From Nitrosopumilaceae archaeon (lineage in GTDB: Archaea > Thermoproteota > Nitrososphaeria > Nitrososphaerales > Nitrosopumilaceae): 64,000 nt of DNA. Positions within the stretch are counted from its first letter, which is position 1. Every line of letters starts with the position of its first letter. The translations under genes were made by a program, and so were the position numbers. The stretch spans positions 1,376,001 to 1,440,000 of the forward strand of contig CBDCCK010000002.1 in assembly GCA_965214835.1 (NCBI GenBank). Direction: 5' to 3'. The notes beneath the pieces were generated by a model. The model did not search any database, was not told the DNA's origin, and saw only the letters and a program-made list of their open reading frames with translations. Below, one piece after another: positions 7,707-45,426 of the stretch.

Positions 7707-7707
7707 A

Positions 7708-19271: not shown

Positions 19272-19783
19272 TGTCAGAAGCAACATCACGGAAAAAAATC
19301 GACTTGTCTGCAAGGAAGATTTCTGCAGGGTGGCCCAAGGTTGGATATGACGGCAACGAGAACAACAAGGCCCTTCAGTTCTATGCAAGAAAATCCGGAA
19401 AGACAAAAGAGAGGAGATCCATGTTTGTCGGCAAGAAACTAGCTGACATCTTTATCTATGCCATGGCGTTAGGCAAACATGCAGGACTGAAAGAAGATTA
19501 TGGAAAACAGGGCGACAGACGAGATTCTATAGACATGGAATACATTGCAATTCATCCCGAATACCTGTGGATGATGTTATCTGTAGCATTAGAGGAGGCG
19601 AAGAATAACGGAGAAAATCCATTGGAAATATTTGATGATCCAAGAAATAAGATAATAGGTGTGTGCGAACAGTATGCAAACTACGGTATCAAGTTGCTAA
19701 TATCTATGGATGAGGGTGCAAGCACAGCAGATCCATACAAGGACTACGAGGAAAAGCTCGAAGAATTACTAGAGAATAATTGA
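19271..19783 (+). CDS. pbeD: PbeD-like (DndE-related) protein
   Basis: DIFIYAMALG...CEQYANYGI pattern; position after the ATPase. Confidence 0.65.
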   Translation: MSEATSRKKIDLSARKISAGWPKVGYDGNENNKALQFYARKSGKTKERRSMFVGKKLADIFIYAMALGKHAGLKEDYGKQGDRRDSIDMEYIAIHPEYLWMMLSVALEEAKNNGENPLEIFDDPRNKIIGVCEQYANYGIKLLISMDEGASTADPYKDYEEKLEELLENN

Positions 19784-21927
19784 CTGTAACATGTCCTATC
19801 TGTGACGATTCCTTTGAGTCTCAATCCAAGCTCATGTCCCACTTTGAGATACATAAATCCAAGTCAGTTTTGCAGAGAAAACCCGTCGAGACAGACATGG
19901 CCACAAAAAAGCAGAGTTGCAAAAAAATCAACATCCGGAAAATCTTTGGTGAAGAAATCTTCGAGAGATTAATTTCCGATAAAATCAAAAATGTAGAAAA
20001 CACCGAAGAGATGGTTAACAGGAGACAGTTTGTAGAACAGATAAAAAAGATGGTGTCAAAGCACCCTTTTATCTATGCGCCGTATTTTATTGAGGATGTA
20101 TTTGTTGGGCAAAATGCAGCATTCATACTAAAAAAATATGCAATTCCAAATACTGTAGACTGGCAAAACATAATGCAAAAAACGCTAGGATTGAAGGGCA
20201 AAAGGTACCGCCAGCAGGCGTACAGTAATTCGCTTGAAATGAACATGAAAATACCCACATGGAAGAACAAATATGAGACGTTCAGGGATAATTGCACATT
20301 TTTTGCTGGTGAACTTCTTGAGCTTCTTTTTTACAATCTTTTCTGTTCATCAATTCTTGTTATTATGATGGATCATACAAAAACTGGAGCAGAGCATGGT
20401 GATATAATACTGCGAGCTAGAGAAATCCTTGGAGATAACTTTGACATTTACAAAGTTGTTGACGAGCCACTAAAGAAGAGAATAATTGAAAGATATTTTG
20501 GAAGTGATTTTGAACGTATTGGTGAGGAGATTTTATCCGAGATGATTCGCGAGGGAATTCTCCAAAGGAAGCGAGGTAACTGGAAACTGCTGATCGGCAC
20601 GGTTTCAATAGACAAAATAAAAGATGAGATAGTCAACGAGCTTAGGTTCAATCCAGACATCCACAATGAGACACACATCAGGGATAATGTGACGGCTAGG
20701 CATCCTAGCATACGCCTAATCTTGAATTTGGATGTGTGGAAGACGGCATTGTTTGAACTCGAGGATGAAAAATTGATCCGTCTAGAATCTAGGACAACCA
20801 GCAAAAGCTCGGCACTTGTCTTTCTCAATAAAGATTATCTACGAATCCAACAGAAGCTGAGTGGTCTTGACAATCACCTGCCAGAGTTTCATGGTCGAAA
20901 GATCTCTCCACAGGTGTTTATAGACGAGCTACTCGAGCTGGAACGAGGTGACTTTGGCGACAGAGACGATCAAGTAACCCGAATTGCAGGCCTAGTACTT
21001 GCCGAATCGATAAAGATGCGCGCACCACACGAATCCTTACCCGAGTTTGACTTTTCTACCGACATAACAAACTACAATTTCAGGCCCGAGCAGCTCCAAG
21101 TAATGAAAAGGATGAATTTTGTAATGTGGACCAACATATTTCATTGCAAAGTAATGCTGGAAGAAAAGCTTACGGTAAAAAAATACAAGCGTCTCAAACA
21201 TAATCTACCATCAGAGGATCAAGGAATCGTAGTAACGTTTGTAGAGCCCACGTTAGGTGTAAAGCAAATTCTTGAACAGGACAAATCAATTCAAATAATT
21301 GACAAGGATGATCTAAAATCATGGGCATCAATAACGCCTACAATTCCTGCCAGGAAGGGATCGGTTGTCAGGTTACATTACGATCCAGTATCAGACATGG
21401 AAAGAAGAGTAGCCAAAGTAAACATAATAGACTATGAAAGCGGATTGGCATCAGTCACAGTTTTGCCAGAGGTTAAAGAAGTCACAGTTATGGCAAGGGC
21501 GCTTGAGGAAATCGAAGTGTATAGCAACCAAGTTGATGACTTTGCTGTAATTACAGATAATTATTTTGAATTTCTGACCTGGCTTTCTCAACACTCCGAG
21601 AAACGCGATTTTATCGAGGCAATTTTTGACGGGAATGTGAAGGATCTTAGAAAGATCACGCTAGATAAGAAAAACAACATCTGGGAGATCGAGCTAGCTA
21701 ACAACACGGTAACGATCGAGATGGGAGAAAACAACGCAAACAAAATAGCCAAATGTAGTTGTTATCATGGACTTGATTCCGGCATCCCCTATACGTTTTG
21801 TAAGCATCTGATTACCGCACTGGACAAAATAGGACGGGAAAGGAGTTACTTTGACGAAACATGGAATAGTGAGAACAGTTTCAAGAACGCATTAACAAAG
21901 ATCCTCGCAAAAAATTTTCAGTCTTAG
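19780..21927 (+). CDS. Multidomain protein: C2H2 zinc finger, Mrr-like region and SWIM finger
   Basis: CPIC-x12-H-x3-H; GIVVT...IQIIDKDDL; CSC-x11-CKH; TTG start overlaps the pbeD stop. Confidence 0.65.
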   Translation: MTVTCPICDDSFESQSKLMSHFEIHKSKSVLQRKPVETDMATKKQSCKKINIRKIFGEEIFERLISDKIKNVENTEEMVNRRQFVEQIKKMVSKHPFIYAPYFIEDVFVGQNAAFILKKYAIPNTVDWQNIMQKTLGLKGKRYRQQAYSNSLEMNMKIPTWKNKYETFRDNCTFFAGELLELLFYNLFCSSILVIMMDHTKTGAEHGDIILRAREILGDNFDIYKVVDEPLKKRIIERYFGSDFERIGEEILSEMIREGILQRKRGNWKLLIGTVSIDKIKDEIVNELRFNPDIHNETHIRDNVTARHPSIRLILNLDVWKTALFELEDEKLIRLESRTTSKSSALVFLNKDYLRIQQKLSGLDNHLPEFHGRKISPQVFIDELLELERGDFGDRDDQVTRIAGLVLAESIKMRAPHESLPEFDFSTDITNYNFRPEQLQVMKRMNFVMWTNIFHCKVMLEEKLTVKKYKRLKHNLPSEDQGIVVTFVEPTLGVKQILEQDKSIQIIDKDDLKSWASITPTIPARKGSVVRLHYDPVSDMERRVAKVNIIDYESGLASVTVLPEVKEVTVMARALEEIEVYSNQVDDFAVITDNYFEFLTWLSQHSEKRDFIEAIFDGNVKDLRKITLDKKNNIWEIELANNTVTIEMGENNANKIAKCSCYHGLDSGIPYTFCKHLITALDKIGRERSYFDETWNSENSFKNALTKILAKNFQS

Positions 21928-22257: not shown

Positions 22258-24207
22258 TTATGGTCCCCTATAGTATTGAATGAGTGGAGGATATTTTGGA
22301 TCATCAGGAGTCATGTGACGCTTGACAATAGGTAATGCCATCTTTCCTTCATAGTATTCTTTGTCAATGATTATGATTTGTCTTCCTTTGAGTTCATCTT
22401 CAGCTAACTCGAAGACAAAGTTGTAAAATCCTTTGAATATGTCCACATTCTCTCGTTCGCTGATGTTTTTCATTGGCGTGTCTATGATCAGAAATGTAGG
22501 AAGTAATGTTCCCTTCTTGGCTGCCAGCCTGTGTATTGCCAACGCATAGCACGATTTGAAGATGGTTTTCTTTCCTCCGCTTCCAAGGTTAGCAAAATGT
22601 GTGGTGGTAGGATCGTCAGGCTTTGTTGACGATATGATTGGAATGTAGTTTTTGGGCGAAATCTCTACTTTATGATCTTCTCGCATCCCAGGAAAGTTCA
22701 CTTGCTTGAGCGTGTCCATGAAAATCTTTTCAAGATCTTTTAGAAGCGATTGTTTTTCTAAGGCCTTTTTCTTTTCGTTGTCCAATTCATCTTTCTGTCT
22801 TTCAATTTTTACGGTTAACTTGCCAGCTTCTTTCTGAAATTCATCCACTTTTTGCGGCAATGGAAGAAGTTGTTTTAGATATTGCAATTTTCCTTCAAGC
22901 ATACTTTTGTTTTTCATCAACTCTTTGGTTTGACTAAGATATTTTGAATCATAATCGTGTTGCAGAGATTCTAATCTATCATCCAACAAAGATTTTTCTT
23001 TTCGCTTGTCTGCTAACTTATTTTCAAGAGTTCTTTTTTCTTGTGTCAGTTGCGCAATTGATGAGTCAATTTCTTTGACTCTTTCAACCAAGTCTGAACC
23101 CATTGTCTTGAGATTTTCTACAGGTTCGCTATTGGGTGGTCTGTGACATAACGAACATATGTCAACTTCTTTGTCGTTGCCTAGATGCTGTCCGCACTGT
23201 GGACAAGTATCAAAGTGCAAGTTTCTGAAAACGCCGCGAGCAGCATTTGTCCTATCAATCTTCATGCTAGCTGTGATGTATTCAGATTTCAGTCTATTTT
23301 GATTTGTGATTTGGAAAGAGAGATCCTCGATCTTTTCCTTTATGCTGTCTGCCAAATTACTTACTTGTCTTGATTGTTCTTTCAATTCATCAATGGGGTG
23401 GCTTTTAACAAAGGTTTTCTTGTGTACGGCAGCAAGTTCCATGTTGATTTTTTTCAAGTCTTTTTCGACGGTTTGAATGTTTGCCTGAAGATCTTTGGTC
23501 AACTCAATTCCCGTTTCTTGCAATATGTCACGTAGTTGATTCATTGTGGAAGTTACCGCAGTTTTTTCACTTCGTAAAGCAGCTATGTCAGTCTCAAGTT
23601 TTGTAACTTTTTCAAAATGAAAACCAAAGATAAATCGAACGGCATCTTGGCTCTTATTGCGTTTGAATTGGTCATCCCCATTGTAAAGATAAAAAAATGA
23701 GCTGTCAATTCGATCTTGATCAAGATAGCAGTACCACATAAGGTCACGGAAACTAAGCCGTACCATCTCGCTCTCTATGTTGTGTTTGCTTTTACGAACA
23801 AATGGAGGCTCAAGGCCTGCTAGATAGAAAAGAAGGTCCGACATTGATTCCACCTTTGTGTCAGGTATGAGGAATTTTTCTTTCTGTCCTCTGATTGGGA
23901 TCTGCATAGCCATAGGTTCTCCTTGTGGAGGTTCTCTCCATGCGGAAATAACGGAGTTTTCTCCTTTCGTTCTGTCTAACCTCACTGAATACTTTCCTAT
24001 ATCAAGTTCGAGACTTACGCTAACAAACTCCTGTTGCATTGCGGGTGTTTCTTTAAGATCTCCGCCAAGACAAAAATTAATCAGTCTTGGCATAGTTGAC
24101 TTTCCTGCTCCAATTTTTCCATAAAAATAAGATATTGAATCAGAGAATGGTATTTCGTAATCTGCTCGTTTGGTTCTAAGAATTAACTTGCGGAATTTTA
24201 TTTTCAT
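22258..24207 (-). CDS. lmuB: Lamassu/ABC-three-component SMC-like ATPase (LmuB)
   Basis: GKIGAGKS, LSFRDL..Y.YLDQ, CPQC/CSLC, LGSGG, LIIDTP. Confidence 0.85.
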   Translation of the reverse strand: MKIKFRKLILRTKRADYEIPFSDSISYFYGKIGAGKSTMPRLINFCLGGDLKETPAMQQEFVSVSLELDIGKYSVRLDRTKGENSVISAWREPPQGEPMAMQIPIRGQKEKFLIPDTKVESMSDLLFYLAGLEPPFVRKSKHNIESEMVRLSFRDLMWYCYLDQDRIDSSFFYLYNGDDQFKRNKSQDAVRFIFGFHFEKVTKLETDIAALRSEKTAVTSTMNQLRDILQETGIELTKDLQANIQTVEKDLKKINMELAAVHKKTFVKSHPIDELKEQSRQVSNLADSIKEKIEDLSFQITNQNRLKSEYITASMKIDRTNAARGVFRNLHFDTCPQCGQHLGNDKEVDICSLCHRPPNSEPVENLKTMGSDLVERVKEIDSSIAQLTQEKRTLENKLADKRKEKSLLDDRLESLQHDYDSKYLSQTKELMKNKSMLEGKLQYLKQLLPLPQKVDEFQKEAGKLTVKIERQKDELDNEKKKALEKQSLLKDLEKIFMDTLKQVNFPGMREDHKVEISPKNYIPIISSTKPDDPTTTHFANLGSGGKKTIFKSCYALAIHRLAAKKGTLLPTFLIIDTPMKNISERENVDIFKGFYNFVFELAEDELKGRQIIIIDKEYYEGKMALPIVKRHMTPDDPKYPPLIQYYRGP

Positions 24208-24755
24208 AGGTCTATCTTCTCCCCAAATTTCATGTCATGAAGTTCTGGTACTAATTCATACATTAAGTCTTTTAGTCTAGTTGCGCTTAGTCTTCCAAAA
24301 TTTGAGTAGATTATATCAGAACGGTTAACAAAGTCGTCCATTCCTTCATATTCGCCAAGTTTCTCGGCGGTTTCTTTGCCCTTTTGAGTAATTTGTATTT
24401 CGACTGCTTTATTGTTGGTTGCTACTTGTATCAGTCCTTTTGATTCCAGTATTGCAAGATATTGATAGTAACGATGATCCCATGGGCCGTATCGGAATCT
24501 AACCATTTTAGATTCCACACTTGTTTTTTCGTGTGGTCGGATATTTGGATTGTCAGTAGAATTGAATTTACTTAGAGCACACTCCAAAACCGTAGGATAT
24601 CTTAGCAAAAAGTCTAGTTTTACCAATTTTGTTATTCCTTTGACCTGTTTCATGTTACGTCCTCCTAGTTTTGATAGCAGTATCAAGATACGAGATGTAT
24701 GCAGTTCAAAGTTGCTATCCAAGTCAAGAATCTGTTTGATTATCTGAAAGCTCAA
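24204..24755 (-). CDS. lmuC: ABC-3C middle component (LmuC-like, wHTH)
   Basis: KLVKLDFLLRYP...RYGPWD.RYY; overlaps both neighbours. Confidence 0.8.
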   Translation of the reverse strand: MSFQIIKQILDLDSNFELHTSRILILLSKLGGRNMKQVKGITKLVKLDFLLRYPTVLECALSKFNSTDNPNIRPHEKTSVESKMVRFRYGPWDHRYYQYLAILESKGLIQVATNNKAVEIQITQKGKETAEKLGEYEGMDDFVNRSDIIYSNFGRLSATRLKDLMYELVPELHDMKFGEKIDL

Positions 24756-25972
24756 TTTGCATCCTCCATTTTTTGATTGTTGAACCAGATCTTACAATCT
24801 CCAGTCAAAATGCCGATTATGCCCTTCAATACCTCGTATTTTATTCCAAAAACATCGCGTGCTCTAGTTCTGGCTATGCCTCTGAGCCGGCCCTCTAATG
24901 ATTTTAGCATGTCGGTACCGTATAATGCATCGTCATTTTTTGAATCAGTTTCAGATTCTGCCGCTTCGTTTTCTAATAGGGTTTGCAAATGATCAATTTC
25001 TTGTTTGATTGCTTCTGGTTCACCATTTCTTTTGTTGTATTCCTCAAAGAAGTGATTCTGTGCAGAGTAAGCCAAGTTTTTCATACTGTTGATTTCCATT
25101 ATGCCTATTCCTCCTGCTGCCATTTTTTGTTCCATTAATTCCACGGTTCCAGTCTTTAACTGAAACTCTGTAGGGTTGTTTGACACCAAGTAGACAATCC
25201 GTTCATTCTCTACAATTTCTCCGATTGTTTCAGGGAGGATTTGTTTTGATTTGACTTCCCGCCGTAATTGTTTTCCTTCGCCATCTTCAACAAATGTAAT
25301 ATAGTCTTTGATAGAATTCTCTGTTACCTTGGATGATTTCTTCGAAATAGCTAGGACCAGCATGTTAAGTAAAGAAGATAATTTAGGAACAGAAAGATTA
25401 GAACACTTTTCAATTTTAGACAAATAATCAGTTGTTATTTTACTTTCTATGTCATCAAGTGACGGTCCTTTCAAAATTTCTGTTTTTGACAAAACCGAAA
25501 CTACATCCGTTTTATTTATCGAATTGCTATCAGAGAGTTTTTCAACATACTCCTTGACATCAGAATTCAAATCGTTTGGATTTTCTTGTAATGATTTTAT
25601 TATTCTCTCCAGGTTTTTGGTTTTTTTAAAACCAATATTTGAAACAAAAATAAACTTTTCAAAAGTGTCAGGAAAACCCTGATTTAGGTTAATGAATCTG
25701 TTAAGACTTTTAATTACATCGGGATCATTATAGCTAAATTCTGGTTTTGATTCAGAAGTTTTGATTTGAATTGAAACAAGTTTATCGTTGCATAAAACAC
25801 CTAGAACGTCATCTGCAAGTTCACAAAATAATTGTTTATACGTAATTTCTTTTCTATACATTTGGATAGCAAGTAATATCGTATACAAATGCTGGTATCT
25901 ATATCGTCTTAGAACATCATCGCCGGTTGCAGGAACTTTAGCAATTTCTTCTATTTTGTCCACATCTATCAC
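24752..25972 (-). CDS. lmuA: Lamassu effector: Cap4/DUF4297-like endonuclease plus ABC-3C CTD (LmuA)
   Basis: GDD....Y.YQ, E..DD, QIKT nuclease motif; C-terminal G....LT.DC.IW. Confidence 0.8.
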   Translation of the reverse strand: MIDVDKIEEIAKVPATGDDVLRRYRYQHLYTILLAIQMYRKEITYKQLFCELADDVLGVLCNDKLVSIQIKTSESKPEFSYNDPDVIKSLNRFINLNQGFPDTFEKFIFVSNIGFKKTKNLERIIKSLQENPNDLNSDVKEYVEKLSDSNSINKTDVVSVLSKTEILKGPSLDDIESKITTDYLSKIEKCSNLSVPKLSSLLNMLVLAISKKSSKVTENSIKDYITFVEDGEGKQLRREVKSKQILPETIGEIVENERIVYLVSNNPTEFQLKTGTVELMEQKMAAGGIGIMEINSMKNLAYSAQNHFFEEYNKRNGEPEAIKQEIDHLQTLLENEAAESETDSKNDDALYGTDMLKSLEGRLRGIARTRARDVFGIKYEVLKGIIGILTGDCKIWFNNQKMEDAN

Positions 25973-26009
25973 TCATCAATTACAGGGTAGTTAAAGATAG
26001 ATCCACGAT

Positions 26010-26067
26010 GGAACTGGAACATCTTGGTATATCGTGCATTAGTATCTACCGCAGACGTTCCAGTTCC
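26010..26067. repeat. 58-bp palindrome upstream of the Lamassu operon
   Basis: ggaactggaacatct ... agacgttccagttcc (14/15 complementary). Confidence 0.75.
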
Positions 26068-26351
26068 GGCTACTCAGTAATCTGGGCGTGAAAATTCCAC
26101 TCAAATTTACTACTCGTACCTAATTCTATGGGCGACCTAAACACATGCTGGAGTACATTTGACAAGGTTATTAAAAAATGGGCGATACTGTACTGTAAAT
26201 GACCCTGGAGACGAGCAAGGCACTGTTTCACGATCAGCTGGAGCAGATACGCAACCAGACCGGGCCCTCGCTACGATCAGTGATTTACATGGGGCCATGA
26301 CAGAGAAGCCTGATTCACGCCTAAGACTTGGACTGCAGATGCTGCAACATT

Positions 26352-27665
26352 TTATGACGTTTTTGTTTTTCTGGCCCACTCATTCAACTCTGTTATTACT
26401 GTGTTACGGTAGTTTGTTGCAGGGTTTTCGTGGGATGTTAGCATGTACTCCCCCCACAGGTTGCCGCTGCCTTTTAACACATCGCGTATTGATGAGCTGC
26501 CTCTTTTGTTTTCTGTGTCATATACATATCCCGCATAGGTTGAGTCAGGCTCCAGCCAAGTTATCTGCATATCCGGAATGAACTGTGGCAGGTTTTTGAC
26601 AATGTTCATGCTTGCATCATGGGCTATGCGTCCCAGCATAGAATCGATCACGATAAAATGATTTTTTTCCGCAATGTCACGCATGGCTACAATGCATGAC
26701 ACGGCAAGGCAGTATGTGAGCCCTGCACCGAGCACCGATGGCGGCCTTCCGGGATCCGAGGGACTCTCTGGATCGCATACTGTCACGGTACAGTCTGATC
26801 CGATCTCTACCTTGGAAAAGGGATTATGTGGTGTCAGTCGCAGAAAATACTCGGTGGTTTTGTCAGCAACTGTATTCCTGAACCTCTCTAGCAGGGCATC
26901 CCTGTGCTGACCGAGTATTTTTTCGATGGTTCTTGCCAACGCACTTATGTTGTGACGTGATTGCGACTCTGTTTTTAGATCCATGTCTTTGAGTAGTTCG
27001 TCACGTGTTTCTCTGATGTGTCTTATGGCATCTCCAACAACTGAAAGGCCGGATATCTTTTCCATTCCGACTCTTATCTTGTTTTTGCCATCTGAATCAA
27101 AGAAGGAGCCCAGCAACTCATCGTCAACGAGAAAATACCATGACATGTACTCTGGGAGCACGTCCAGTATGGCATCACAGGCACAAGGCAATTCTGTGCA
27201 CACATCCCATTTGGCAGATTGTTTTGTCCTACGGACAAACTCCAGAGCAGGTGTAATTTCAATGCCTGCAGGCAGGATGCCTCCCACATCGTCCCGGCGA
27301 ACAAGCCGTGAAGATTCCTGCCTCTTGATAAAATGCACCCTGCGTTTTATTGCATATAGCGGCTCGTCCCCCTCGTAAAGATGGACCTCTACAGACGTCT
27401 CGTCCTCATCGCCAGGATTCAGTGACTGCAGCACGTCGCGGTTGATGATGCACATGTCACGAGGGTTTTTCTCAGATCTGAACTTCCCATAAAGGCACCA
27501 GTAAACGGCATCCAATATTGTGGTCTTGCCCCTTCCGTGGGCGCCCGTGATTACCGTAATCGTTTTTTGCGAATCCACGGATAATTCAACTGCAGCAGTG
27601 TCCTTGTATATTCCATAGTTTTTCAGCATGATTTTTCCTAGGCGCACGCCTGTGTTAGGAACCAT
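26352..27665 (-). CDS. Short PbeC/DndD-like ATPase lacking most of the coiled coil, copy 1
   Basis: Walker A GAHGRGKT, YWCLYG; degenerate signature (LGAG) and Walker B/D-loop (IDSMLGRI); start probably ATG 27665. Confidence 0.75.
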   Translation of the reverse strand: MVPNTGVRLGKIMLKNYGIYKDTAAVELSVDSQKTITVITGAHGRGKTTILDAVYWCLYGKFRSEKNPRDMCIINRDVLQSLNPGDEDETSVEVHLYEGDEPLYAIKRRVHFIKRQESSRLVRRDDVGGILPAGIEITPALEFVRRTKQSAKWDVCTELPCACDAILDVLPEYMSWYFLVDDELLGSFFDSDGKNKIRVGMEKISGLSVVGDAIRHIRETRDELLKDMDLKTESQSRHNISALARTIEKILGQHRDALLERFRNTVADKTTEYFLRLTPHNPFSKVEIGSDCTVTVCDPESPSDPGRPPSVLGAGLTYCLAVSCIVAMRDIAEKNHFIVIDSMLGRIAHDASMNIVKNLPQFIPDMQITWLEPDSTYAGYVYDTENKRGSSSIRDVLKGSGNLWGEYMLTSHENPATNYRNTVITELNEWARKTKTS

Positions 27666-27861
27666 GTTTGTTGCAGAACTCCTGTATGTCTTCATTACCG
27701 GCATGTCTTGTGAGAATTTTGCCCAGATTGGTTTTGTAGTTTTTGCCGTCTGCCAGATCCATCTGTTCCTCTGCCTTGAGAACCTCCTTTAGTATGTCCT
27801 TTATCCTGTCTGGGGCATCGTAGGCATCTATCTCTTTCAGAATGAGATCATTAACGGGCAC
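27655..27861 (-). CDS. PbeB-like small protein, copy 1
   Basis: Similar to 16955-17185 (N..IL...P..I..L...L..E...N.D....C); same overlap with the downstream ATPase. Confidence 0.65.
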   Translation of the reverse strand: MPVNDLILKEIDAYDAPDRIKDILKEVLKAEEQMDLADGKNYKTNLGKILTRHAGNEDIQEFCNKHGS

Positions 27862-28635
27862 AGCATGACTATGCAAGCATGTCTTAAAAACTATAGTCGG
27901 CGCTTGCATAGCCTCCTCCTTGTACCAGATCCGGATTCGGCTCACCCCGGTTTTTAACTACCTGTACCTGAATTCTTCCTGATCCGTCTTACGGTTATAT
28001 CCATGGACTCTGCCATCCTAGCGTTGGTGAGGGTGCCCTTTCTCTTTTACCGTACAATCCATCGTACCTAGCTTTCCTTTAGTTTCATGCTGTTTGGGCG
28101 CCCAAGGCCCACGTATTTGCGCGGCCTCTGCCGCTAGACCCACACACCCATGCCTCCGCTGCGGGCAGGCTTGCTCATCTTCTCCTGGCCGACCTTGTAT
28201 ACTCGGAAAAGGGATGAACAACTTTTCGGACGAGATAGATTATAATCATGATCTCACTAAATTGAGAAGCAATCATGAAATCTTTTGATGCCAAAAGCAA
28301 GCTTGGAGCGGGAATCCTTTACATCATAAATTCAGGTATTGTATTTGAGACAAAAATCAAGGCTTGATTTTGCAGATTCCATTGACAATTCTTAGAACGC
28401 ACTAGGCTGGGCTCAAGCATGGGGTGATGGCAGAACAGGTAGGGAGAGTAGCCTAATGCTGTGGAAGGCGCTGAAACTCTTGAAATTGCCAGGGAGCTGA
28501 TTCGAAATTAGCAAATTCTGATTATTTGTGAACGGATTTGCATAATGATGGTGCACGAGTACCTTCTGGGATGCCCCTAATTGATCTGTTTCGGTCAAAA
28601 TTGGCTATCCTGGGTTACTTCTGGGAAGACTGCAT

Positions 28636-28725
28636 GTAAGAGTTTACCCCTCAGGCTGTACTGCTGGCCGGAGCCTTCATGGTCACGCCTGCCACGTTGT
28701 ATCTTGGGGGGGGGTAAACTCTTAC
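28636..28725. mobile_element. ~90-bp MITE, GTAAGAG family, copy 1
   Basis: Perfect 15-bp IR GTAAGAGTTTACCCC; homologous copies at 29180-29270 and 63514-63604. Confidence 0.85.
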
Positions 28726-28747
28726 CAATAAATCAAACTCGGGGGGA

Positions 28748-28864
28748 CAGTCTTCCCAGAAGTACGTGATTCATGACTGTGCAGATGGCAGTGGGCGAAT
28801 CTGCAGGCATCACAATTTGATTTGTTTCAAATCCGGGGCCGTTTTTGGGCTACTGGGAAGACTG
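28748..28864. mobile_element. 117-bp ISH3-type MITE
   Basis: Ends CAGTCTTCCCAG.../...CTGGGAAGACTG; 4-bp TSD GGGA; same IR as 32683-33236. Confidence 0.75.
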
Positions 28865-29082
28865 GGGACGGTCATGCCGGCACACATCCTGAATGCGCGG
28901 GGACTGACAATCTAGCAAGTAATTTCATGGATTACGTACGCCTTGCCTGCATTTGGATCGGGTTGGCGTACATTATGTGCCCATTTGATCAAAATTTGCT
29001 AATTTCGAATCAACTCTCAGGGATCGTCGCGTGTCGGTTAGGTGTTGAGAAACCTCAGACAGAGTCGCCGGAGCCCCAGGGA

Positions 29083-29179
29083 AACATGGACAGGGATCGT
29101 CGCGTGTTGGCTAGACTGAGGCGCAAGGGCTGGTCCGTGCTGCGCTTTTGGGAGCATGACATCATGGGCAATCCTGACA
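29083..29179 (+). pseudogene. Vsr/DUF559-like endonuclease C-terminal remnant
   Basis: NMDRDRRVLARLRRKGWSVLRFWEHDI. Confidence 0.7.
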
Positions 29180-29270
29180 GTAAGAGCTCACCCCCTCCAG
29201 AAAATACGACGTGGTAGGCACGGTGATCAAGGCTCCGACCAGCAGAGTCGCCTGAGGGGTAAACTCTTAC
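29180..29270. mobile_element. ~90-bp MITE, GTAAGAG family, copy 2 (inverted relative to copy 1)
   Basis: gtaagagctcacccc...ggggtaaactcttac; interior resembles the reverse complement of copy 1. Confidence 0.85.
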
Positions 29271-29320
29271 GACTGCATAGGGTCTATAATTTATATGACA
29301 GCGCAAGAGTTCTGGTTACG

Positions 29321-29584
29321 TTGTATGATAAATCAGATTTTGCAATTACGTTTGTAATACAAGGTAAAGAGTTTGCGATTATAGTCATGCCGGATGAAAT
29401 TATAAAAAATGCTGTAAAAAAAGCACAGGAAAAATCTGGCAATAAAGACAAGCCGGACGATTTGAAGGTTAGAACGGAAGAAGGCAAAATACTCGATCAG
29501 AACAAGAGTTTTAGCGATCAAGGAATCACAAACCCAACAAAACTATTTCTTGATAAAGGTCCGGGCCGCGGTGGAAGAAGATAG
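29321..29584 (+). CDS. Ubiquitin-like protein (DUF2604-like, BilA position)
   Basis: Beta-grasp pattern AVKKAQEKSGN...EGKILD..KSF...GI....LFL ending GRGG-RR; TTG start about 26 nt after TTTATA. Confidence 0.8.
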   Translation: MYDKSDFAITFVIQGKEFAIIVMPDEIIKNAVKKAQEKSGNKDKPDDLKVRTEEGKILDQNKSFSDQGITNPTKLFLDKGPGRGGRR

Positions 29585-30012
29585 CGATTTTAGAACCAAA
29601 GGTATCCAGAATAAAATTCACCAAGGCCGTCCAAGAGCTAGAATCTGTACAAAAGACCTATGAGGAAATTTGGAGAGTGCGATATGCGCAATACCCAACA
29701 ATACTGTTAGATGTTCTTTTTGCACGAGGAATCACGCTTTTACTGAATCTGGAAAATTGGGATTTCCTTCCTCCACAAGCTACCTTGATCAGTACGGATC
29801 TGCAAAGTAAGACAACACGGTCGCCCGGACACCACATCGTCCTCAATAAAAACACAGGCCGATTGTGGTTTTGCAGTCCGGGATTCTCTGAGTATCATAC
29901 GCATTACCCGGAAGACAGGTGGGATCTCATAAGGGGGACTTATCTAGGAAGCATAACGGGCATAGTAAAACAGGCATGCAATATGATTGGCAGGACAAAT
30001 CGTAATGAATGA
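29581..30012 (+). CDS. CEHH-family E2-like protein (BilB-like); start codon unclear
   Basis: NWDFLPP...FCSPGFSEYHTH...W; frame open from 29557 and encodes EPKVSRIKF. Confidence 0.75.
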   Translation: MAILEPKVSRIKFTKAVQELESVQKTYEEIWRVRYAQYPTILLDVLFARGITLLLNLENWDFLPPQATLISTDLQSKTTRSPGHHIVLNKNTGRLWFCSPGFSEYHTHYPEDRWDLIRGTYLGSITGIVKQACNMIGRTNRNE

Positions 30013-30484
30013 TGCGAGCCTTGCTAAAGTTTCACGGATAAAAATTCCAAGACAGGTCATAAACGAAACCTTTGATTTTTTGCAAAAACACGGTGACAAA
30101 CATGTGGAATCTCACGCGCTGTTGGTTGGAAAAGAAGCGGCGAGGGTGTTCAGCGTGTCTGCCGTATGGTTTCCAAAACAACGCGGGACATCTTGCTCCT
30201 ATGAAGTGCCGGAGGAGGAAGTGTTTCAAATTAACAAACGGCTAAACCTAGAGAGAAAAACGGCAATCTGTCAGGTACACACACATCCCTGCGGTGCGTT
30301 CCACAGCGGCATAGATGATGATGGATCGGCATTAATGTTGCCGGGATCTGTCAGCATCGTGATACCGAATTTCGGGTTTGTTCCACGCGAAGAACTAAAT
30401 CGGTGGGAGGTGTACAGGCTTGAGGACGGCATATGGCAGCACGTATCAGAGCGGGAGGTGAAACGCTTATTTCGCGTCACGTGA
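30005..30484 (+). CDS. JAB/MPN metalloprotease (deubiquitinase, BilC-like)
   Basis: E...QVHTHP...FHS..DD JAMM motif. Confidence 0.9.
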   Translation: MNDASLAKVSRIKIPRQVINETFDFLQKHGDKHVESHALLVGKEAARVFSVSAVWFPKQRGTSCSYEVPEEEVFQINKRLNLERKTAICQVHTHPCGAFHSGIDDDGSALMLPGSVSIVIPNFGFVPREELNRWEVYRLEDGIWQHVSEREVKRLFRVT

Positions 30485-31986
30485 CACCCAATGAAGAAGG
30501 CATAGTTCAAAAGAACATTACGGCAATGTCGATGATATCCAAATATGAGTCTGCCAGCATTAGATCGCTGCTAGACTCGTTTAAAGTCAGGGTGGTACTC
30601 TCAGAAAACGACACGAATGAGAATTATGAATGTGCGTGCAATGTCACATTAAACCTCCTTACAAGGTTTTTAAATTCGGTACATTATGCAGGTCCGAAAA
30701 GCATTCTAAGAATGCCGCCGTCTTGCAGGTCAAAGATTCGCTGTGACGACGCGAATGGTGACGACGCGTCCATGCACCTGATATTTGGAAATCACAAACC
30801 AATGCCTAATTCGTTGTATGTTTCGTCCTCTGGCTGGAGCGTTTACCTGTCTCAGGACAGTCCGTGCGGTTGGAAGCCCTTGGTCATAAACCGCCTGGCA
30901 GCAGCGTATGCTGGAGGACTGGCGGTGGGGGAGGTTTTAAAGAATGTCTTGGATGATGCCCCATCTGAAAAAATAGATCGGTTCGAATATGACTTGGTTA
31001 CACACGGCAGGTCGGTGCAGCCCGTTACGAAACCTCCGGTTCCAAAAATCCTGGATCTTGGTGATTTGACGATTGTGGGTTGTGGGGCAATAGGACAGGC
31101 ACTGTGTTTTGGTTTGGAATCCATTACGTCTCTTGCAGGAAGGATGACCCTGATCGATCATGATATGTTGGAGACCTCAAATGAGCAGAGATACGTCCTG
31201 GCGTTCCCAGAGAACCGGAGGGAAAACAAGGCATTGCATATGTGCAAATTCTTGGCCCGCAACAACCCCCTCCTGAACTTGGTTGGGGTTCCAATGAGCT
31301 ATGAGGATCACGCAAATGCCGTCAATATGCCCGTAGGAAGCAGAGCCACGGTGGCTGTGGACAACATTCTTACCAGATTGAACGTGCAGGCGGGATTGCC
31401 AAGAGTACTCTGGAACGCATGGACAGACGTGTCTGACGCAGGGTTGAGATACGGGATTGGCAGGCATGCTCTAGATGACAGGTACGAATGCATCTGGTGT
31501 GCCTATTTTCCCACAGGTAAGCAACCTACGGAAATGGAAATGAATTCAATGCTGACGGGGTTTTCACATAAGGAGATACAACGGAAGCTTGATCAGGGTG
31601 AAAAGTGCACTAGCAAGGATTTGAAACGAATTCACAAACATACTAGCATCCCAATGAACATATTGATCAAAAACAAGAACCGCCCGTTTGCGGACGTGCT
31701 ACACGGGGAGTGCGGCGTATATGCGCTAGGGAATCGAGGAAATGACGCCACAGCCCCTGTGCCACATGTGCCGTTTCTTGCTGGGGTGTTCCTCGCATCC
31801 CAAATCGTACTGGAATCACTACAGCCGTCACCGTCGCAGGCAAGTCCCACCCATCATTATTCCAGCGTGGATTTCGACGGCATGGGGTTTCCAAGACCCG
31901 ATTGCGCGGTAAAAAAACTGAGAAATCCAAAATGCCTATGCAATGATCAAGACTACAAAGACGCCTATGCCGAAAGATGGAACTGA
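30481..31986 (+). CDS. E1/ThiF-family activating enzyme with inactive N-terminal adenylation-like domain (BilD-like)
   Basis: VGCGAIG, IDHD...SNEQRY, AVDN...R, CIWC...C...CLC; GTGA overlap with JAB. Confidence 0.85.
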   Translation: MTPNEEGIVQKNITAMSMISKYESASIRSLLDSFKVRVVLSENDTNENYECACNVTLNLLTRFLNSVHYAGPKSILRMPPSCRSKIRCDDANGDDASMHLIFGNHKPMPNSLYVSSSGWSVYLSQDSPCGWKPLVINRLAAAYAGGLAVGEVLKNVLDDAPSEKIDRFEYDLVTHGRSVQPVTKPPVPKILDLGDLTIVGCGAIGQALCFGLESITSLAGRMTLIDHDMLETSNEQRYVLAFPENRRENKALHMCKFLARNNPLLNLVGVPMSYEDHANAVNMPVGSRATVAVDNILTRLNVQAGLPRVLWNAWTDVSDAGLRYGIGRHALDDRYECIWCAYFPTGKQPTEMEMNSMLTGFSHKEIQRKLDQGEKCTSKDLKRIHKHTSIPMNILIKNKNRPFADVLHGECGVYALGNRGNDATAPVPHVPFLAGVFLASQIVLESLQPSPSQASPTHHYSSVDFDGMGFPRPDCAVKKLRNPKCLCNDQDYKDAYAERWN

Positions 31987-33284: not shown

Positions 33285-33335
33285 AAAGGTTTCATGGCTT
33301 GCAAATGCCGGTTTCGTGATGATATCAGCTGGCAA
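33285..33335 (-). pseudogene. Possible 5' stub of an SspB/DUF4007-like gene
   Basis: TTG-PADIITKPAFASHETF with GAGGAGG upstream, overlapping the desulfurase 3' end. Confidence 0.45.
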
Positions 33336-34521
33336 CGTTGCTTGCCTCCTCGACGGGTGGTTTGGAACCGGCCGATCTGGCAAGTTCGGCGGCTTTTGCA
33401 ATCTCCTCTACGGCCTTTTGGATGTCCCTCATTGTGTTTTGCTTTCCGATGGATACCCGAATACACTCGTCTGCAGCCGTCTCGTCCAGACCCATTGCCA
33501 GGAGCACGTGCGAGGGCCCCATGGCAGATGACGAGCATGCGCTTCCGGAGGATATCGCGATGTTCTTTGCGTTTGTGATCACGGCATCGGCCAGCACTCC
33601 CCTGATTCTGATATTGGACGTGTTTGGAAGGCGCTCTGCAGTCTCGCCGTTTATCGTAATATCTGGAACGGCCTTTTTTATCCTGCTTTCAAAGTTGTCG
33701 CGCAGCATCATGATCTTTTCAGATATCCTGCTGTCCTCAAGGCGTATCAGCTCGCACGCCTTGCCAAACCCGACAATTGCAGGGGTGTTTTCCGTCCCGC
33801 TGCGCACGTTTGCCTCTTGGCCTCCCCCCAGAATTGAGGCATGCAGGGTCTTGCGTATGGGGCGCGTTGCAATCAGGGCCCCGCATCCCTTGGGACCGTA
33901 CATCTTGTGGCTGCTGCAGGTGGCGGCGTCTATTCCCAGATCCATTATGCTTACCGGGATCTTTCCCACCGCCTGCGTTATGTCGCTGTGCAGGTATGCC
34001 CCTGCGTCATGTGCGACCTGGGCCAGCTCCCTTATCGGGTTTATCACCCCGGTCTCGCTGTTTGCCATCATTATGGACACCAGGTCTGCGGGATAGTCCC
34101 TGAGGAATGCCTTGAGGGCCTTTGGGCTGATCGTGCCGTCCAACCCTACTGGAATGGGCATTATGGAGATCATGTCCCGCCTGAACATGTCCAGGCAGGG
34201 CTCTATTACGGACCTGTGCTCTGTTGCCCCGTACAATATCCTGCAGTCATGGAGCATGTACTTTCCAAAGCTGCAGAGTATCAGGTTGTTTGCCTCAGTC
34301 GCACCCGAGGTAAAAAACACGTCCATGGCGCTGCATCCGACGGTAAGGGCCAGATCCTCGCGTGCCTGGTCCAGCATGTCTGCCACATCCGCGCCCTCAT
34401 CGTGCGCGCTGGACGGGTTTGCAAAGTGCTCTGTGTGCATTTTGTTCATGGCATCAACTACGCGCTGGTCTACCGGCGTGGCAGCGTTGTAATCAAGATA
34501 CACCAATGAGAAGACATGCAA
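33325..34521 (-). CDS. Second cysteine desulfurase (IscS/DndA/SspA-like)
   Basis: YLDYNAATP, SGATEAN, HSDITQ, SSHKMYGPKG, SSGSAC. Confidence 0.92.
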   Translation of the reverse strand: MHVFSLVYLDYNAATPVDQRVVDAMNKMHTEHFANPSSAHDEGADVADMLDQAREDLALTVGCSAMDVFFTSGATEANNLILCSFGKYMLHDCRILYGATEHRSVIEPCLDMFRRDMISIMPIPVGLDGTISPKALKAFLRDYPADLVSIMMANSETGVINPIRELAQVAHDAGAYLHSDITQAVGKIPVSIMDLGIDAATCSSHKMYGPKGCGALIATRPIRKTLHASILGGGQEANVRSGTENTPAIVGFGKACELIRLEDSRISEKIMMLRDNFESRIKKAVPDITINGETAERLPNTSNIRIRGVLADAVITNAKNIAISSGSACSSSAMGPSHVLLAMGLDETAADECIRVSIGKQNTMRDIQKAVEEIAKAAELARSAGSKPPVEEASNVAS

Positions 34522-35437: not shown

Positions 35438-35517
35438 AGACTTTATGCGTAATCGGTTCAGATCTAGGATTATCACGAACAAATTCGCCTCATTCAGGTC
35501 GATTACGCATAAAGTCT
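35438..35517. mobile_element. 80-bp MITE with the IRs of the IS5-family element at 9665
   Basis: AGACTTTATGCGTAATCG...CGATTACGCATAAAGTCT. Confidence 0.9.
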
Positions 35518-42624: not shown

Positions 42625-43063
42625 CTGCCATACAAAGCCATGCTGCGCAATTGGAAGGATTTCCGGCGATGCTTCTAAGCTCTAACAGCTTCGTGCCTAA
42701 AAACCCAACACTGAAATTTTAATCGGCTAGGCGGCCTTGGGCTTTGGTTATGTCCAAACCCCCCCTTGCAGCAAAATTCGCGCCTGTATGCTGTAGTAAC
42801 CTAGTCTATTACCAGTATCTCCTCTCAATATATGCCGGTTCAGAAAAGCGGTAACTCGTATGAAGTTCGGCCTGTATGATGCCATTGGATGGAACCTTGG
42901 GGTGCAAAACAACACGAGTGCACCACAAGGCTTGGCATGCAGATGGAGGTGGCCTGAGGTGAGCTGTGCGGCGACCCCCTCGCTACGATCAGTGATTTAC
43001 ATGGGGCCATGACAGAGAAGCCTGATTCACGCCTAAGACTTGGACTGCAGATGCTGCAGCATT

Positions 43064-44377
43064 TTATGACGCTTTTGTTTTTCTGGCCCACTCATTCAAC
43101 TCTGTTATTACTGTGTTACGGGAGTTTGTTGCAGGGTTTTCGTGGGATGTTAGCATGTATTCCCCCCACAGGTTGCCGCTGCCTTTTAACACATCGCGTA
43201 TTGATGAGCTGCCTCTTTTGTTTTCTGTGTCATATACATATCCCGCATAGGTTGAGTCAGGCTCCAGCCAAGTTATCTGCATATCCGGAATGAACTGTGG
43301 CAGGTTTTTGACAATGTTCATGCTTGCATCATGGGCTATGCGTCCCAGCATAGAATCGATCACGATAAAATGATTTTTTTCTGCAATGTCACGCATGGCT
43401 ACAATGCATGACACGGCAAGGCAGTATGTGAGCCCTGTACCGAGCACCGATGGCGGCCTTCCGGGATCCGAGGGACTCTCTGGATCGCATACTGTCACGG
43501 TACAGTCTGATCCGATCTCTACCTTGGAAAAGGGATTATGTGGTGTCAGTCGCAGAAAATACTCGGTGGTTTTGTCAGCAACTGTATTCCTGAACCTCTC
43601 TAGCAGGTCATCCCTGTGCTGACCGAGTATTTTTTCGATGGTTCTTGCCAACGCACTTATGTTGTGACGTGATTGCGACTCTGTTTTTAGATCCATGTCT
43701 TTGAGTAGTTCGTCACGTGTTTCTCTGATGTGTCTTATGGCATCTCCAACAACTGAAAGGCCGGATATCTTTTCCATTCCGACTCTTATCTTGTTTTTGC
43801 CATCTGAATCAAAGAAGGAGCCCAGCAACTCATCGTCAACGAGAAAATACCATGACATGTACTCTGGGAGCACGTCCAGTATGGCATCACAGGCACAAGG
43901 CAATTCTGTGCACACATCCCATTTGGCAGATTGTTTTGTCCTACGGACAAACTCCAGAGCAGGTGTAATTTCAATGCCTGCAGGCAGGATGCCTCCCACA
44001 TCGTTCCGGCGAACAAGCCGTGAAGATTCATGCCTCTTGATAAAATGCACCCTGCGTTTTATTGCATATAGCGGCTCGTCCCCCTCGTAAAGATGGATCT
44101 CGACAGACGTCTCGTCCTCATCGCCAGGATTCAGTGATTGCAGCACGTCGCGGTTGATGATGCACATGTCATGAGGGTTTTTCTCAGATCTGAACTTCCC
44201 ATAAAGGCACCAGTAAACTGCATCCAGTATTGTGGTCTTGCCCCTTCCGTGGGCTCCCGTGATTACCGTAATCGTTTTTTGCGAATCCACGGATAATTCA
44301 ACTGCAGCAGTGTCCTTGTATATTCCATAGTTTTTCAACATGATTTTTCCTAGGCGCACGCCTGTGTTAGGAACCAT
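43064..44377 (-). CDS. Short PbeC/DndD-like ATPase, copy 2
   Basis: 8 amino-acid differences from copy 1; ORF intact. Confidence 0.75.
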   Translation of the reverse strand: MVPNTGVRLGKIMLKNYGIYKDTAAVELSVDSQKTITVITGAHGRGKTTILDAVYWCLYGKFRSEKNPHDMCIINRDVLQSLNPGDEDETSVEIHLYEGDEPLYAIKRRVHFIKRHESSRLVRRNDVGGILPAGIEITPALEFVRRTKQSAKWDVCTELPCACDAILDVLPEYMSWYFLVDDELLGSFFDSDGKNKIRVGMEKISGLSVVGDAIRHIRETRDELLKDMDLKTESQSRHNISALARTIEKILGQHRDDLLERFRNTVADKTTEYFLRLTPHNPFSKVEIGSDCTVTVCDPESPSDPGRPPSVLGTGLTYCLAVSCIVAMRDIAEKNHFIVIDSMLGRIAHDASMNIVKNLPQFIPDMQITWLEPDSTYAGYVYDTENKRGSSSIRDVLKGSGNLWGEYMLTSHENPATNSRNTVITELNEWARKTKAS

Positions 44378-44573
44378 GTTTGTTGCAGAACTCCTGTATG
44401 TCTTCATTACCGGCATGTCTTGTGAGAATTTTGCCCAGATTGGTTTTGTAGTTTTTGCCGTCTGCCAGATCCATCTGTTCTTCTGCCTTGAGAACCTCCT
44501 TTAGTATGTCCTTTATCCTGTCTGGGGCATCGTAGGCATCTATCTCTTTCAGAATGAGATCATTAACGGGCAC
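44367..44573 (-). CDS. PbeB-like small protein, copy 2
   Basis: Same protein sequence as copy 1. Confidence 0.65.
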   Translation of the reverse strand: MPVNDLILKEIDAYDAPDRIKDILKEVLKAEEQMDLADGKNYKTNLGKILTRHAGNEDIQEFCNKHGS

Positions 44574-44673
44574 AGCATGACTATGCAAGCATGTCTTAAA
44601 AAACTATAGTCGGCGCTTGCATAGTCTCCTCCTTGTACCAGATCAGGATTCGGCCCACCCCGGTTTTTAACTA

Positions 44674-44752
44674 TAGCAACGGGCATAAGTCTTTGAGTCA
44701 AAGTAGGTCATAACTACACGTAAAAAACCTCAATTATTTCTGCTCGTTGCTA
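44674..44752. mobile_element. 79-bp MITE with TA duplication (IS630/Tc1-like)
   Basis: IR tagcaacgRgca; absent from copy 1, whose empty site reads aacTAcctg. Confidence 0.88.
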
Positions 44753-45273
44753 TACCTGTACCTGAATTCAAGAATGGATCCACATCTTCCTGATCCGTCT
44801 TACGGTTATATCCATGGACTCTGCCATCCTAGCGTTGGTGAGGGTGCCCTTTCTCTTTTACCATACAATCCATCGTACCTAGCTTTCCTTTAGTTTCATG
44901 CCGTTTGGGCGCCCAAGGCACGCGTATTTGCGCGGCCTCTGCCGCCAGACCCACACATCCATGCCTCCGCTGCGGGCCAGGCTTGCTCATCTTCTCCTGG
45001 CCGACCTTGCATACTCGGAAAAGGGGCGAACAACTTTTCGGACAAGGTAGATTATAACCATGATCTCACTAAAAAATTGAGAAGCAATCATGAAATCTTT
45101 TGATGCCAAAAGCAAGCTTGGAACGGGAATCCTTTACATCATAAATTCAGGTATTGTATTTGAGGCAAAAATCAAGGCTTGATTTTGCAGATTCCATTTA
45201 CAATTCTTAGAACGCATTAGGCTGGGCTCAAGCATGGGGTGATGGCAGAACAGGTAGGGAGAGTAGCCTAATG

Positions 45274-45426
45274 CTGTGGAAGGTGCTGAAATTCCTGAAA
45301 TTCCTGAAATTGGGCCGTGTGGGAAGGTGCTGAAATTCCTGAAATTCCTGAAATTGGGCCGTGTGGGAAGGTGCTGAAATTCCTGAAATTCCTGAAATTG
45401 GGCCGTGTGGGAAGGTGCTGAAATTG
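45274..45426. repeat. 44-bp tandem repeat (about 3.5 copies) with nested 9-bp CTGAAATTC units
   Basis: Units start at 45317, 45361 and 45405; degenerate copies near 45535-45590. Confidence 0.95.

Follow-up and report, generated by a model that had tools for sequence, protein, structure and literature searches.

A duplicated two-gene unit

The window analysed here is a stretch of 64,000 nucleotides (nt) from the genome of a Nitrosopumilaceae archaeon, an ammonia-oxidising organism (assembly GCA_965214835.1, contig CBDCCK010000002.1, positions 1,376,001 to 1,440,000). Within a defence island, the window carries two copies of a unit in which a gene for a small PbeB-like protein overlaps a gene for an armless PbeC, essentially the head and neck of a CxC-type ABC (ATP-binding cassette) ATPase. 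PbeC is the CxC-type coiled-coil ABC ATPase of the PbeABCD system (Xiong 2019, PMC6459918; Krishnan et al. 2024, PMC10853773). Each of the four genes of this system is reported to be needed for protection (PMC6459918), and the coiled coil of CxC-type ATPases is given as about 400 residues (PMC10853773). PbeB, with 66 amino acids (aa; PMC6459918), is presented as a 'rapidly evolving small protein' of CxC systems (PMC10853773) and has been called 'mostly disordered' and a possible negative regulator (PMC10853773, PMC6459918). According to the same two sources, it is unsettled how PbeABCD stops viruses and which roles PbeB and the ATPase arm play in this.

Both units are encoded by the minus strand and were delimited by blastn between the two regions, copy 1 at 26265..28487 (2223 nt) and copy 2 at 42977..45302 (2326 nt). 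The part including the genes (26265-27960 and 42977-44673) is 98.7% identical over 1697 nt with 21 differing positions, and the upstream part (27974-28487 and 44785-45302) is 95.6% identical over 518 nt. Between these two parts, copy 2 has about 110 extra nt at 44674-44784. No homology was found between the flanks of copy 1 and copy 2 beyond both unit ends. The genome (3.22 Mb in 2 contigs, with a completeness of 99.95%) contains exactly two units, the best further matches to the ATPase being the resident PbeC (28-29% identity) and DndD, and the distal 250 nt of the unit (28241..28487 in copy 1) match the genome only at the two copies. The left junction of copy 1 is bridged by an 11,963-nt contig of the public run X1 with 0 differences. 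The left junction of copy 2 is bridged by contigs of run X5, which comes from another study; these span 42372-43110 and 43102-44714, the latter with 0 differences. Run X1 may be the source sample. The X5 contigs cover copy 2 and leave copy 1 uncovered, an absence that contigs cannot demonstrate. Record 15 of run X3 begins exactly at 42977, short-read contigs breaking at the repeat boundary.

The longest open reading frames (ORFs) for the ATPase comprise 450 aa (26352..27704 and 43064..44416, minus strand) and their products are identical at 442 of 450 residues. Translation most likely starts at M14 (ATG at 27665 in copy 1 and 44377 in copy 2), which yields proteins of 437 aa encoded at 26352..27665 and 43064..44377. 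This start is favoured because M14 falls in an invariant column at which 8 of the 9 aligned homologues begin, and because residues 1-16 have a predicted local confidence (pLDDT) below 50. With translation from M14, the ATPase gene extends 11 nt into the end of the small ORF, its stop included. The same layout is found in the resident Pbe operon, as had been stated in the preliminary description of this DNA, which was made from the letters and translations alone. Its ATPase length of some 437 aa and the two intact ORFs with 8 amino acid differences that it listed were likewise recovered.

The assignment to PbeC is based on a PADLOC match with an E-value of 4.2e-42 that involves both head halves. 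Residues 23-242 correspond to positions 4-208 of 618 of the PbeC profile and residues 268-392 to positions 498-619 of 636 of a second PbeC model, the middle being absent. Pfam recognises the N-terminal P-loop part only (AAA_23, 2.6e-15), and the NCBIfam equivalog model for RecF scores 28.2 bits against a cut-off of 172. Altogether, about 275 aa of coiled coil are absent, and both head halves and a short neck are retained. In the alignment, 286 columns are missing from the window ATPase, a stub of about 55 aa is left, and the nearly invariant C..C columns of the CxC zinc hook fall within the gap; the earlier view of a coiled coil cut to some 60 aa with no hook is therefore borne out. The ATPase is 262 aa shorter than its 699-aa relatives. 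Its AlphaFold (AF2) model (pLDDT 87.9, pTM 0.87) consists of a head and a two-helix stub (residues 221-241 and 247-290). The top Foldseek match of this model is 5dny_D (E=1.5e-17), with 3qku_A also among the best, both being Rad50 heads with a short adjacent coiled coil. Profile comparison with solved sequences placed Rad50 and SMC heads closest, no DndD or PbeC structure being among the matches.

The PbeB-like protein is encoded on the minus strand at 27655..27861 in copy 1 and at 44367..44573 in copy 2. The two proteins are identical, and their genes have 1 synonymous difference. Alternative starts in copy 1 are TTG at 27876, ATG at 27909 and GTG at 27945, and the longest small ORFs of the two copies differ in length (96 aa versus 73 aa) due to a 1-nt indel. 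We place the start at the GTG at 27861, giving 68 aa, because the starts of the homologues align there; on this reading the indel would lie outside the gene. A TATA-like TTTTTAAG box can be proposed at 27883..27890 (minus strand), 21 nt upstream of this GTG, and copy 2 has one extra T at the same box. Its position suggests an archaeal promoter and a leaderless message. The protein can be aligned end to end with 17 PbeBs encoded directly upstream of PbeC genes, N4, I7 and E31 being invariant across all 18 sequences, and it is 39-41% identical to the PbeBs of four Nitrosopumilaceae Pbe operons (L018, L019, L020 and L026). End-to-end alignment with the resident PbeB gives 19% identity, and BLASTP against this protein alone produced no alignment. 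No significant match to a Pfam, PADLOC or NCBIfam model was obtained for the PbeB-like protein. It does have the layout of a PbeB (55-80 aa, encoded upstream of and overlapping the ATPase gene), which is also seen in L018-L020 and in the resident operon.

No further Pbe genes belong to the unit, which carries the B-like and C-like genes only and thus differs from a complete PbeABCD set. There is no PbeD (DndE-type) ORF in either unit or its flanks, and blastx of the flanks of both units gave no remnant of pbeA, pbeD or a fifth operon gene (best E=0.21), in agreement with the original view of a unit without pbeA or pbeD. A search of 25900-29400 with Rfam gave a single match, mir-2558, with an E-value of 0.45, far under the gathering score.

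Descent, motif states and selection

The ATPase had previously been regarded as a PbeC paralogue. An origin from the resident Pbe operon is not supported: identity with the resident PbeC is 27% and 25% over the two halves, as opposed to 51-56% with the 699-aa proteins of another clade. Judged by sequence, the short ATPase did therefore not branch off the resident PbeC recently. A search of 5.8 billion protein clusters showed it to be most closely related to these 699-aa proteins and to the short P0013 (392 aa) and P0014 (389 aa). A profile search with the short forms at E<=1e-20 retrieved 127 proteins, and the best 120 of these 127 include 3 short-form clusters with both halves, which among the matches listed are P0013, P0014 and the cluster of the window protein itself. 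An exhaustive search of representatives, with 2546 matches at E<=0.001, brought up one more short form, P0065 (367 aa), in which the two halves are present without an arm.

A tree was built from the head columns of 41 rows, leaving out alignment columns 245-590. It unites the two window copies with P0013 and P0014 in a single clade (support 100/99) within the 699-aa clade (100/100). Other short forms, for which a search had been proposed to check the preliminary description, therefore exist. The branch to the window pair is long (0.65). P0065 was placed apart, beside the 696-aa P0032 (97/84), on a branch of 1.0 as compared to 0.15. According to this tree, the loss of the arm has at least two independent origins. 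The window protein lacks alignment columns 268-411 and 418-560, and P0013 and P0014 lack columns 251-578 and with these the neck as well. The deletion ends thus differ. The members of the short clade share V for F, G for D at position 199, G for S, and L or Y for Q, which fits one founding event followed by more trimming. The heads of P0014 and of the full-length P0009 are 62% identical. The two proteins are probably encoded on one contig, since they come from identical sources and agree both in the number of contigs (2) and in the length of the longest one (22,358 nt).

A third allele of the short ATPase, P0280 (439 aa), is represented by 3 ENA contigs, the longest of 5281 nt. At 7 of 7 differing positions before residue 438 it has the residue of copy 2, and the sequence afterwards is unrelated. 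P0280 may therefore represent a third genomic context or a rearranged strain. Five proteins were counted as fragments, namely P0031 (236 aa), P0040 (380 aa), P0060 (396 aa), P0222 (418 aa) and P0225 (545 aa): they have one half only and/or are encoded by contigs of 1.3-1.4 kb, and P0040 and P0060 end in unrelated sequence. P0115 (498 aa), in which the arm is partly shortened and the Walker B aspartate replaced (LMGMPL), was left out of the tree. The named relatives are encoded by metagenome-assembled genomes of Nitrosopumilus and Nitrosopumilaceae. Their operons contain dndD and, further on, pbeA (686-692 aa), pbeB (66-69 aa), pbeC (695-711 aa), a gene for a protein of 153-154 aa and one for a protein of 710-801 aa.

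Short forms were not found in 400 other genomes of the family, of which 24 had matches at E<=1e-15, or in 400 other genomes of the class, of which 17 had matches at E<=1e-20; the two samples overlap and all matches are open frames of 679-767 aa. The 149 candidate stretches from IMG/VR contained no relative. Among 50,697 phage records there was no short form, the 2 distant matches having 24.5% and 28.5% identity over about half of the query. The same applies to plasmid records, in which none of the 12 matches reached 60% identity and any match to both head halves spanned about 1.9 kb of DNA, like a full-length gene. Among the matches listed, the metagenome scan produced an irrelevant locus, L017, which is 48% identical over a stretch of 39 residues. 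The word 'truncated' has 0 occurrences in the main text of PMC10853773. Altogether, with relatives of the same short type and frames that are open in three alleles, the two-gene module is real and, apparently, undescribed.

Motif states were counted in an alignment of 65 rows, with 60 full-length relatives as reference for five short forms (the two window copies, P0013, P0014 and P0065). The Walker A residues G59 and K60, the Walker B residue D354 and Q380, all present in 60 of 60 full-length proteins, are kept in all five short forms, which confirms the retention of Walker A noted before. F193 (F in 57/60) is V in the window copies and lost in 5/5 short forms, and position 199 (D in 31/60) has become G. 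The proposed change of FDGE to VDDE is thus correct with respect to the loss of F alone, since the acidic D194 and E196 are kept. Of the signature residues, S326 (S in 57/60) is replaced by G in four of the five short forms, Q329 (Q or E in 60/60) is L in the window copies and lost in all five, and G328 (60/60) is S in the fifth, P0065. The window copies consequently read LGAGL or LGTGL in place of the canonical LSxGQ/E, and the change to LGAG/LGTG that had been reported stands, as does that of DSPL to DSML (P356, P in 59/60, to M). This last change is confined to the window copies, which are also alone in having T for E389 (60/60) and E for V385 (52/60). Behind Walker B, the 'GRI' lies within the variation of the family (G in 22/60, R in 16/60). 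In P0065, the motifs read VVIDGV and MSASH.

The ATPase genes of copy 1 and copy 2 differ by 8 synonymous and 8 non-synonymous changes (dS 0.026, dN 0.0077), and the resulting ratio of non-synonymous to synonymous rates (dN/dS) of 0.29 rests on just these 16 changes. The neutral expectation is about 77% non-synonymous changes (binomial P=0.016). In the PbeB-like gene, 1 synonymous and 0 non-synonymous changes were counted, and the non-coding parts of the unit differ by 4.4%. Moreover, frames of 389-450 codons have remained open across about 50% protein divergence from P0013 and P0014. Since dN/dS is low, the frames are open and the ATP-binding residues are intact, this pattern is unlike that of a decaying pseudogene, and the module looks maintained. 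The dN/dS check that had been suggested, run here between the copies, therefore argues against a pseudogene, as do the open frames of both copies and P0280.

Proposed role and alternative explanations

Taken together, we consider it likely that the unit encodes a head-and-neck descendant of a PbeC/CxC ATPase with a PbeB of its own, that this ATPase arose from the 699-aa clade by loss of the arm and hook of about 275 aa followed by a change of the signature (S to G, and Q/E to L or Y), and that it has been kept under selection. The window ATPase resembles PbeC in its Rad50-like split head, its position within the PbeC clade, the overlapping pbeB that precedes it and its location in a Dnd/Pbe island. 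It is unlike PbeC in that the long coiled coil, the hook, a linked DndE-type PbeD and the HKD-SF2 type PbeA are missing and the signature is changed. Similarly, the small protein shares with PbeB its length (68 aa), its place directly upstream and the overlap with the start of the ATPase gene. However, the near-invariant INP motif of PbeB reads VND in the window protein, which is moreover predicted to be a folded helical clamp on the neck of the ATPase.

The prediction of this clamp comes from a model of the complex of the 450-aa ATPase with the 68-aa PbeB-like protein, which scored 0.62 in each of three runs as compared to 0.00 for the best of 3 controls. The runs share at least 87% of their contacts and the pLDDT of the partner is at least 76. 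Of 80 solved complexes, 58 attain a score of 0.62, as do 2 out of 110 mismatched pairs; these counts are only rough because custom alignments were used. The predicted interface comprises residues 218-237 and 249-271 of the ATPase, i.e. the retained neck, and this contact would explain why about 55 aa of coiled coil were kept in the window lineage. A comparable small helical partner at the base of the coiled coil is found in the complexes of Rad50 with the Rad50-binding domain of Mre11 (3qku, 5dny) and of SMC necks with the N-domain of kleisins. The Rad50 constructs, on the other hand, share 10-15% sequence identity with the window ATPase, and their short arms are engineered whereas the short arm is natural here, where no nuclease partner is present. 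The model also leads to the prediction that PbeB binds the ATPase neck as a subunit of Pbe systems at large.

In ABC ATPases, the signature serine contacts the ATP that is bound on the opposite head, and ABC subunits with a degenerate signature typically act in asymmetric heterodimers. With this in mind, we tentatively propose that the short ATPase might be an ATP-binding cap or modulator that docks on the heads of full-length CxC/PbeC-type ATPases. It would still bind ATP, as its Walker A and Walker B motifs are intact, and it would not form the usual ATP-sandwiched homodimer, as the arms and the signature serine are absent. Instead, it would pair with a signature-bearing full-length CxC/PbeC head to give an asymmetric complex with one degenerate site. 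The full-length head would be capped by this pairing and the activity of the Pbe-type machine modulated, most probably in the sense of a restraint, with the PbeB-like protein clamping the neck in the way of the Mre11 Rad50-binding domain or the kleisin N-domain. The probable co-residence of P0014 and P0009 fits such head capping. TAP1/2 and CFTR are asymmetric ABC heterodimers with one degenerate ATP site. They resemble the window ATPase in having a degenerate signature with the nucleotide-binding residues kept, but they are transporters, and the heterodimer proposed here would be of another kind.

Several observations weigh against this view of the unit. A cognate full-length partner is absent from the 99.95% complete genome, which besides the two copies has only the resident PbeC (27-29% identical) and DndD. 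The resident pbeA is split by an insertion sequence (IS), and the resident PbeB is as divergent as described above, which makes cross-talk between the unit and the resident system doubtful. In P0013 and P0014, the greater part of the predicted PbeB interface is missing (residues 222-265), and contact with PbeB is therefore not common to the short-form clade. The score of the complex may in part be due to the solved Rad50-Mre11 and SMC-kleisin complexes. Furthermore, the loss of P356 and E389 and the long branch of 0.65 could indicate that catalysis was lost or that decay is beginning, and the selection estimate comes from a small sample. Two roles suggested earlier are affected as well. A regulator of the resident DndD, PbeC and LmuB is less plausible since the PbeB-like protein and the neck seem to form a pair orthogonal to the resident one and pbeA is split. 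A decoy for viral proteins is neither supported nor refuted beyond the finding of 0 short forms in the viral, phage and plasmid collections.

A rather less likely explanation is that the unit is an autonomous module in which the armless ATPase, alone or with PbeB, is a nucleotide-state switch or sensor signalling to effectors elsewhere. PtuA (Septu and retron systems), AriA (PARIS) and RecF are short-armed SMC/Rad50-like heads that act as nucleotide-dependent switches. In favour of such a module, constraint persists in a genome without a cognate full-length PbeC, the two copies are intact and so is P0280, the Walker A and Walker B motifs have been preserved along long branches, and the unit has its own upstream region with the TATA-like box; PtuA-type ATPases are also found among the weak sequence matches. 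However, the unit contains no effector gene and its two neighbourhoods differ, with Lamassu beside copy 1 and an AbiU-like gene beside copy 2. In addition, the changed signature argues against ATP-driven self-dimerisation, and the family is very rare, with the 3 short-form clusters mentioned above in the best 120 of 127 matches from 5.8 billion clusters. A specific sequence relation to PtuA or RecF is not seen, the matches to RecF (E=1e-6) and PtuA (E=5e-4) both lying far below the cut-off, and PtuA, AriA and RecF differ from the window ATPase in that they keep a working signature motif and an effector partner. The Lamassu system LmuB-LmuC-LmuA has in common with the unit a coiled-coil ABC ATPase and a small accessory subunit, but copy 2 has no Lamassu neighbour, and neither LmuB nor LmuC is linked to the unit by sequence.

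It is improbable that the unit is anti-defence or selfish cargo, i.e. that a mobile element carries a dominant-negative head and a PbeB sponge to disarm the Pbe-type systems of a host or a competitor and that the two copies are traces of its movement. In support of such an origin, the unit includes the degenerate 5'-end of an rve-type IS, which has the same orientation as the genes (minus strand) and is located at 27974..28240 in copy 1 (the terminus and the start of a helix-turn-helix (HTH) ORF, with stops) and at 44785..45053 in copy 2 (by alignment). This remnant resembles 9 other near-full-length genome sites at 70-76% (11 when two short partial matches are included), and an intact relative with HTH and rve-like ORFs is present in L040. 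The two sites have sharp boundaries, the divergence of P0280 after residue 438 suggests a third context, and a head-only protein without signature would have the look of a poison subunit. The earlier idea of a mobilised derivative thus receives some support from the IS remnant, the presence at two sites and the different 3' junction of P0280. However, the IMG/VR stretches contain no relative, the phage and plasmid matches are just distant ones, and at the unit ends neither terminal (inverted) repeats nor a target-site duplication were seen. Moreover, no transposase or integrase gene is part of the unit, and both copies are chromosomal and located within the defence island.

Slightly more improbable still is a relic, a fragment of a broken Pbe operon that was copied by IS-associated rearrangement and drifts to loss with no present function. 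The island is indeed ridden with IS elements, pbeA, an AbiU-like gene and a PDC-S68 helicase gene each being split, and the lack of pbeA and pbeD, the loss of P356 and E389 on a long branch and, as a weak hint, the missing coverage of copy 1 in the second study would all agree with decay. This is countered by a frame of 437 codons that is uninterrupted in each of three alleles and along a branch with 0.65 changes per site, by the dN/dS value of 0.29 (P=0.016), by the retained ATP-binding residues, and by sister short forms that are conserved at 47-51% identity. Lastly, misassembly with one real copy only is a very unlikely origin of the duplication, since nothing positive speaks for it apart from short-read contigs that break at the repeat boundary, and the copies differ at 21 positions in 1697 nt, by the 110-nt indel and in both flanks, with left junctions bridged by public-run contigs and a genome assembled in 2 contigs.

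With the unit regarded as a head-and-neck PbeC with its own PbeB, several consequences can be considered. This natural arrangement leads to the testable claim that PbeB binds the neck of the ATPase, and the short module represents a minimal soluble unit on which biochemical and structural studies could be carried out. It is also a candidate for a built-in modulator or inhibitor of phosphorothioate-linked defence. As arm loss and signature change arose again independently, a general route from coiled-coil ABC ATPases of immunity to regulators is suggested. A wider proposal, which we regard as doubtful, would be that armless PbeC heads without the signature are recurrent natural head caps (at least two origins) which, with a neck-clamping PbeB, dock on full-length CxC/PbeC ATPases and hold the nuclease-helicase machine off, serving either as a safety catch of the host or as a mobile anti-Pbe weapon, and that PbeB in all Pbe systems is a folded neck-binding subunit, comparable in function to the Rad50-binding domain of Mre11 or the N-domain of kleisins, and not a disordered regulator.

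The surrounding defence island

The window is largely a defence island, with a GC content of 35-50% from about 1 to 50 kb. It adjoins housekeeping aminoacyl-tRNA synthetase genes (50-56 kb, or from about 51.5 kb) with a GC content of 59-63%, which suggests that the island is foreign to its high-GC host. The island contains dndB, dndC and dndD (2807-7321) and a dndA/iscS-like gene (7693-8886). A second dndA/iscS-like cysteine desulfurase gene is located at 33325-34521, far from dndBCD.

The resident Pbe operon begins with a pbeA gene of the HKD-SF2 type that is split into two parts (13545-14585 and 15456-16928) by an IS3-family element with an rve transposase (14643-15479, minus strand), and the system is therefore probably inactive. 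It continues with pbeB (16955-17185), pbeC (17172-19271) and a PbeD-like gene (19271-19783) whose product is 35% identical to that of L020. A further gene (19780-21927) encodes a protein of 715 aa for which no Pfam, PADLOC or NCBIfam match was found. Conserved counterparts are present in Pbe operons of Nitrosopumilus (L020 12561-14693, 29% identity, E=2e-81), and the C-terminus of the 715-aa protein has a CxC...CxH motif resembling a SWIM finger. This gene may represent a fifth Pbe gene in operons of the Nitrosopumilaceae type.

The Lamassu genes lmuB/lmuC/lmuA are located at 22258-25972, with the ATPase gene of copy 1 lying 380 nt upstream in the same orientation. On the other side of copy 1 there is a Bil-like set for ubiquitin-type conjugation, with genes for a DUF2604 protein (29156-29584), a BilC-like JAB protein (29987-30484) and a BilD/E1-like protein (30433-31986). 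Of two AbiU-like genes, one is interrupted (9035-9679 and 11137-12429) by a DDE_Tnp_4 (IS5-type) transposase gene (9869-11098), and the other is intact (40777-42624). The gene for a PDC-S68-type helicase is likewise split, with its N part at 40206-40667, its C part at 35516-38833 and a DDE_Tnp_1 (IS4-type) transposase gene between them (38889-40172).

Small repeats are also present in and around the units. Upstream of its PbeB-like gene, copy 2 has a miniature inverted-repeat transposable element (MITE) of 83 nt (44672..44754) that is absent from copy 1. It has short terminal inverted repeats and 8 other genome copies at 96-99%, together with many partial ones, and its contig depth was very high in four runs. 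Adjoining copy 1, a MITE-like element of 533 nt (28489-29021) has inverted ends of 45 nt that are 80% complementary. A second MITE-like pair with arms of 79 nt likewise adjoins copy 1 (28636-29270) and has a relative at 63512-63604. A tandem array that starts at the right end of copy 2 (45278-45425) consists of 3.4 copies of a 44-nt unit with the 9-nt sub-repeat CCTGAAATT. Copy 1 terminates inside one such 44-nt unit, which hints at copy 2 as the source locus.

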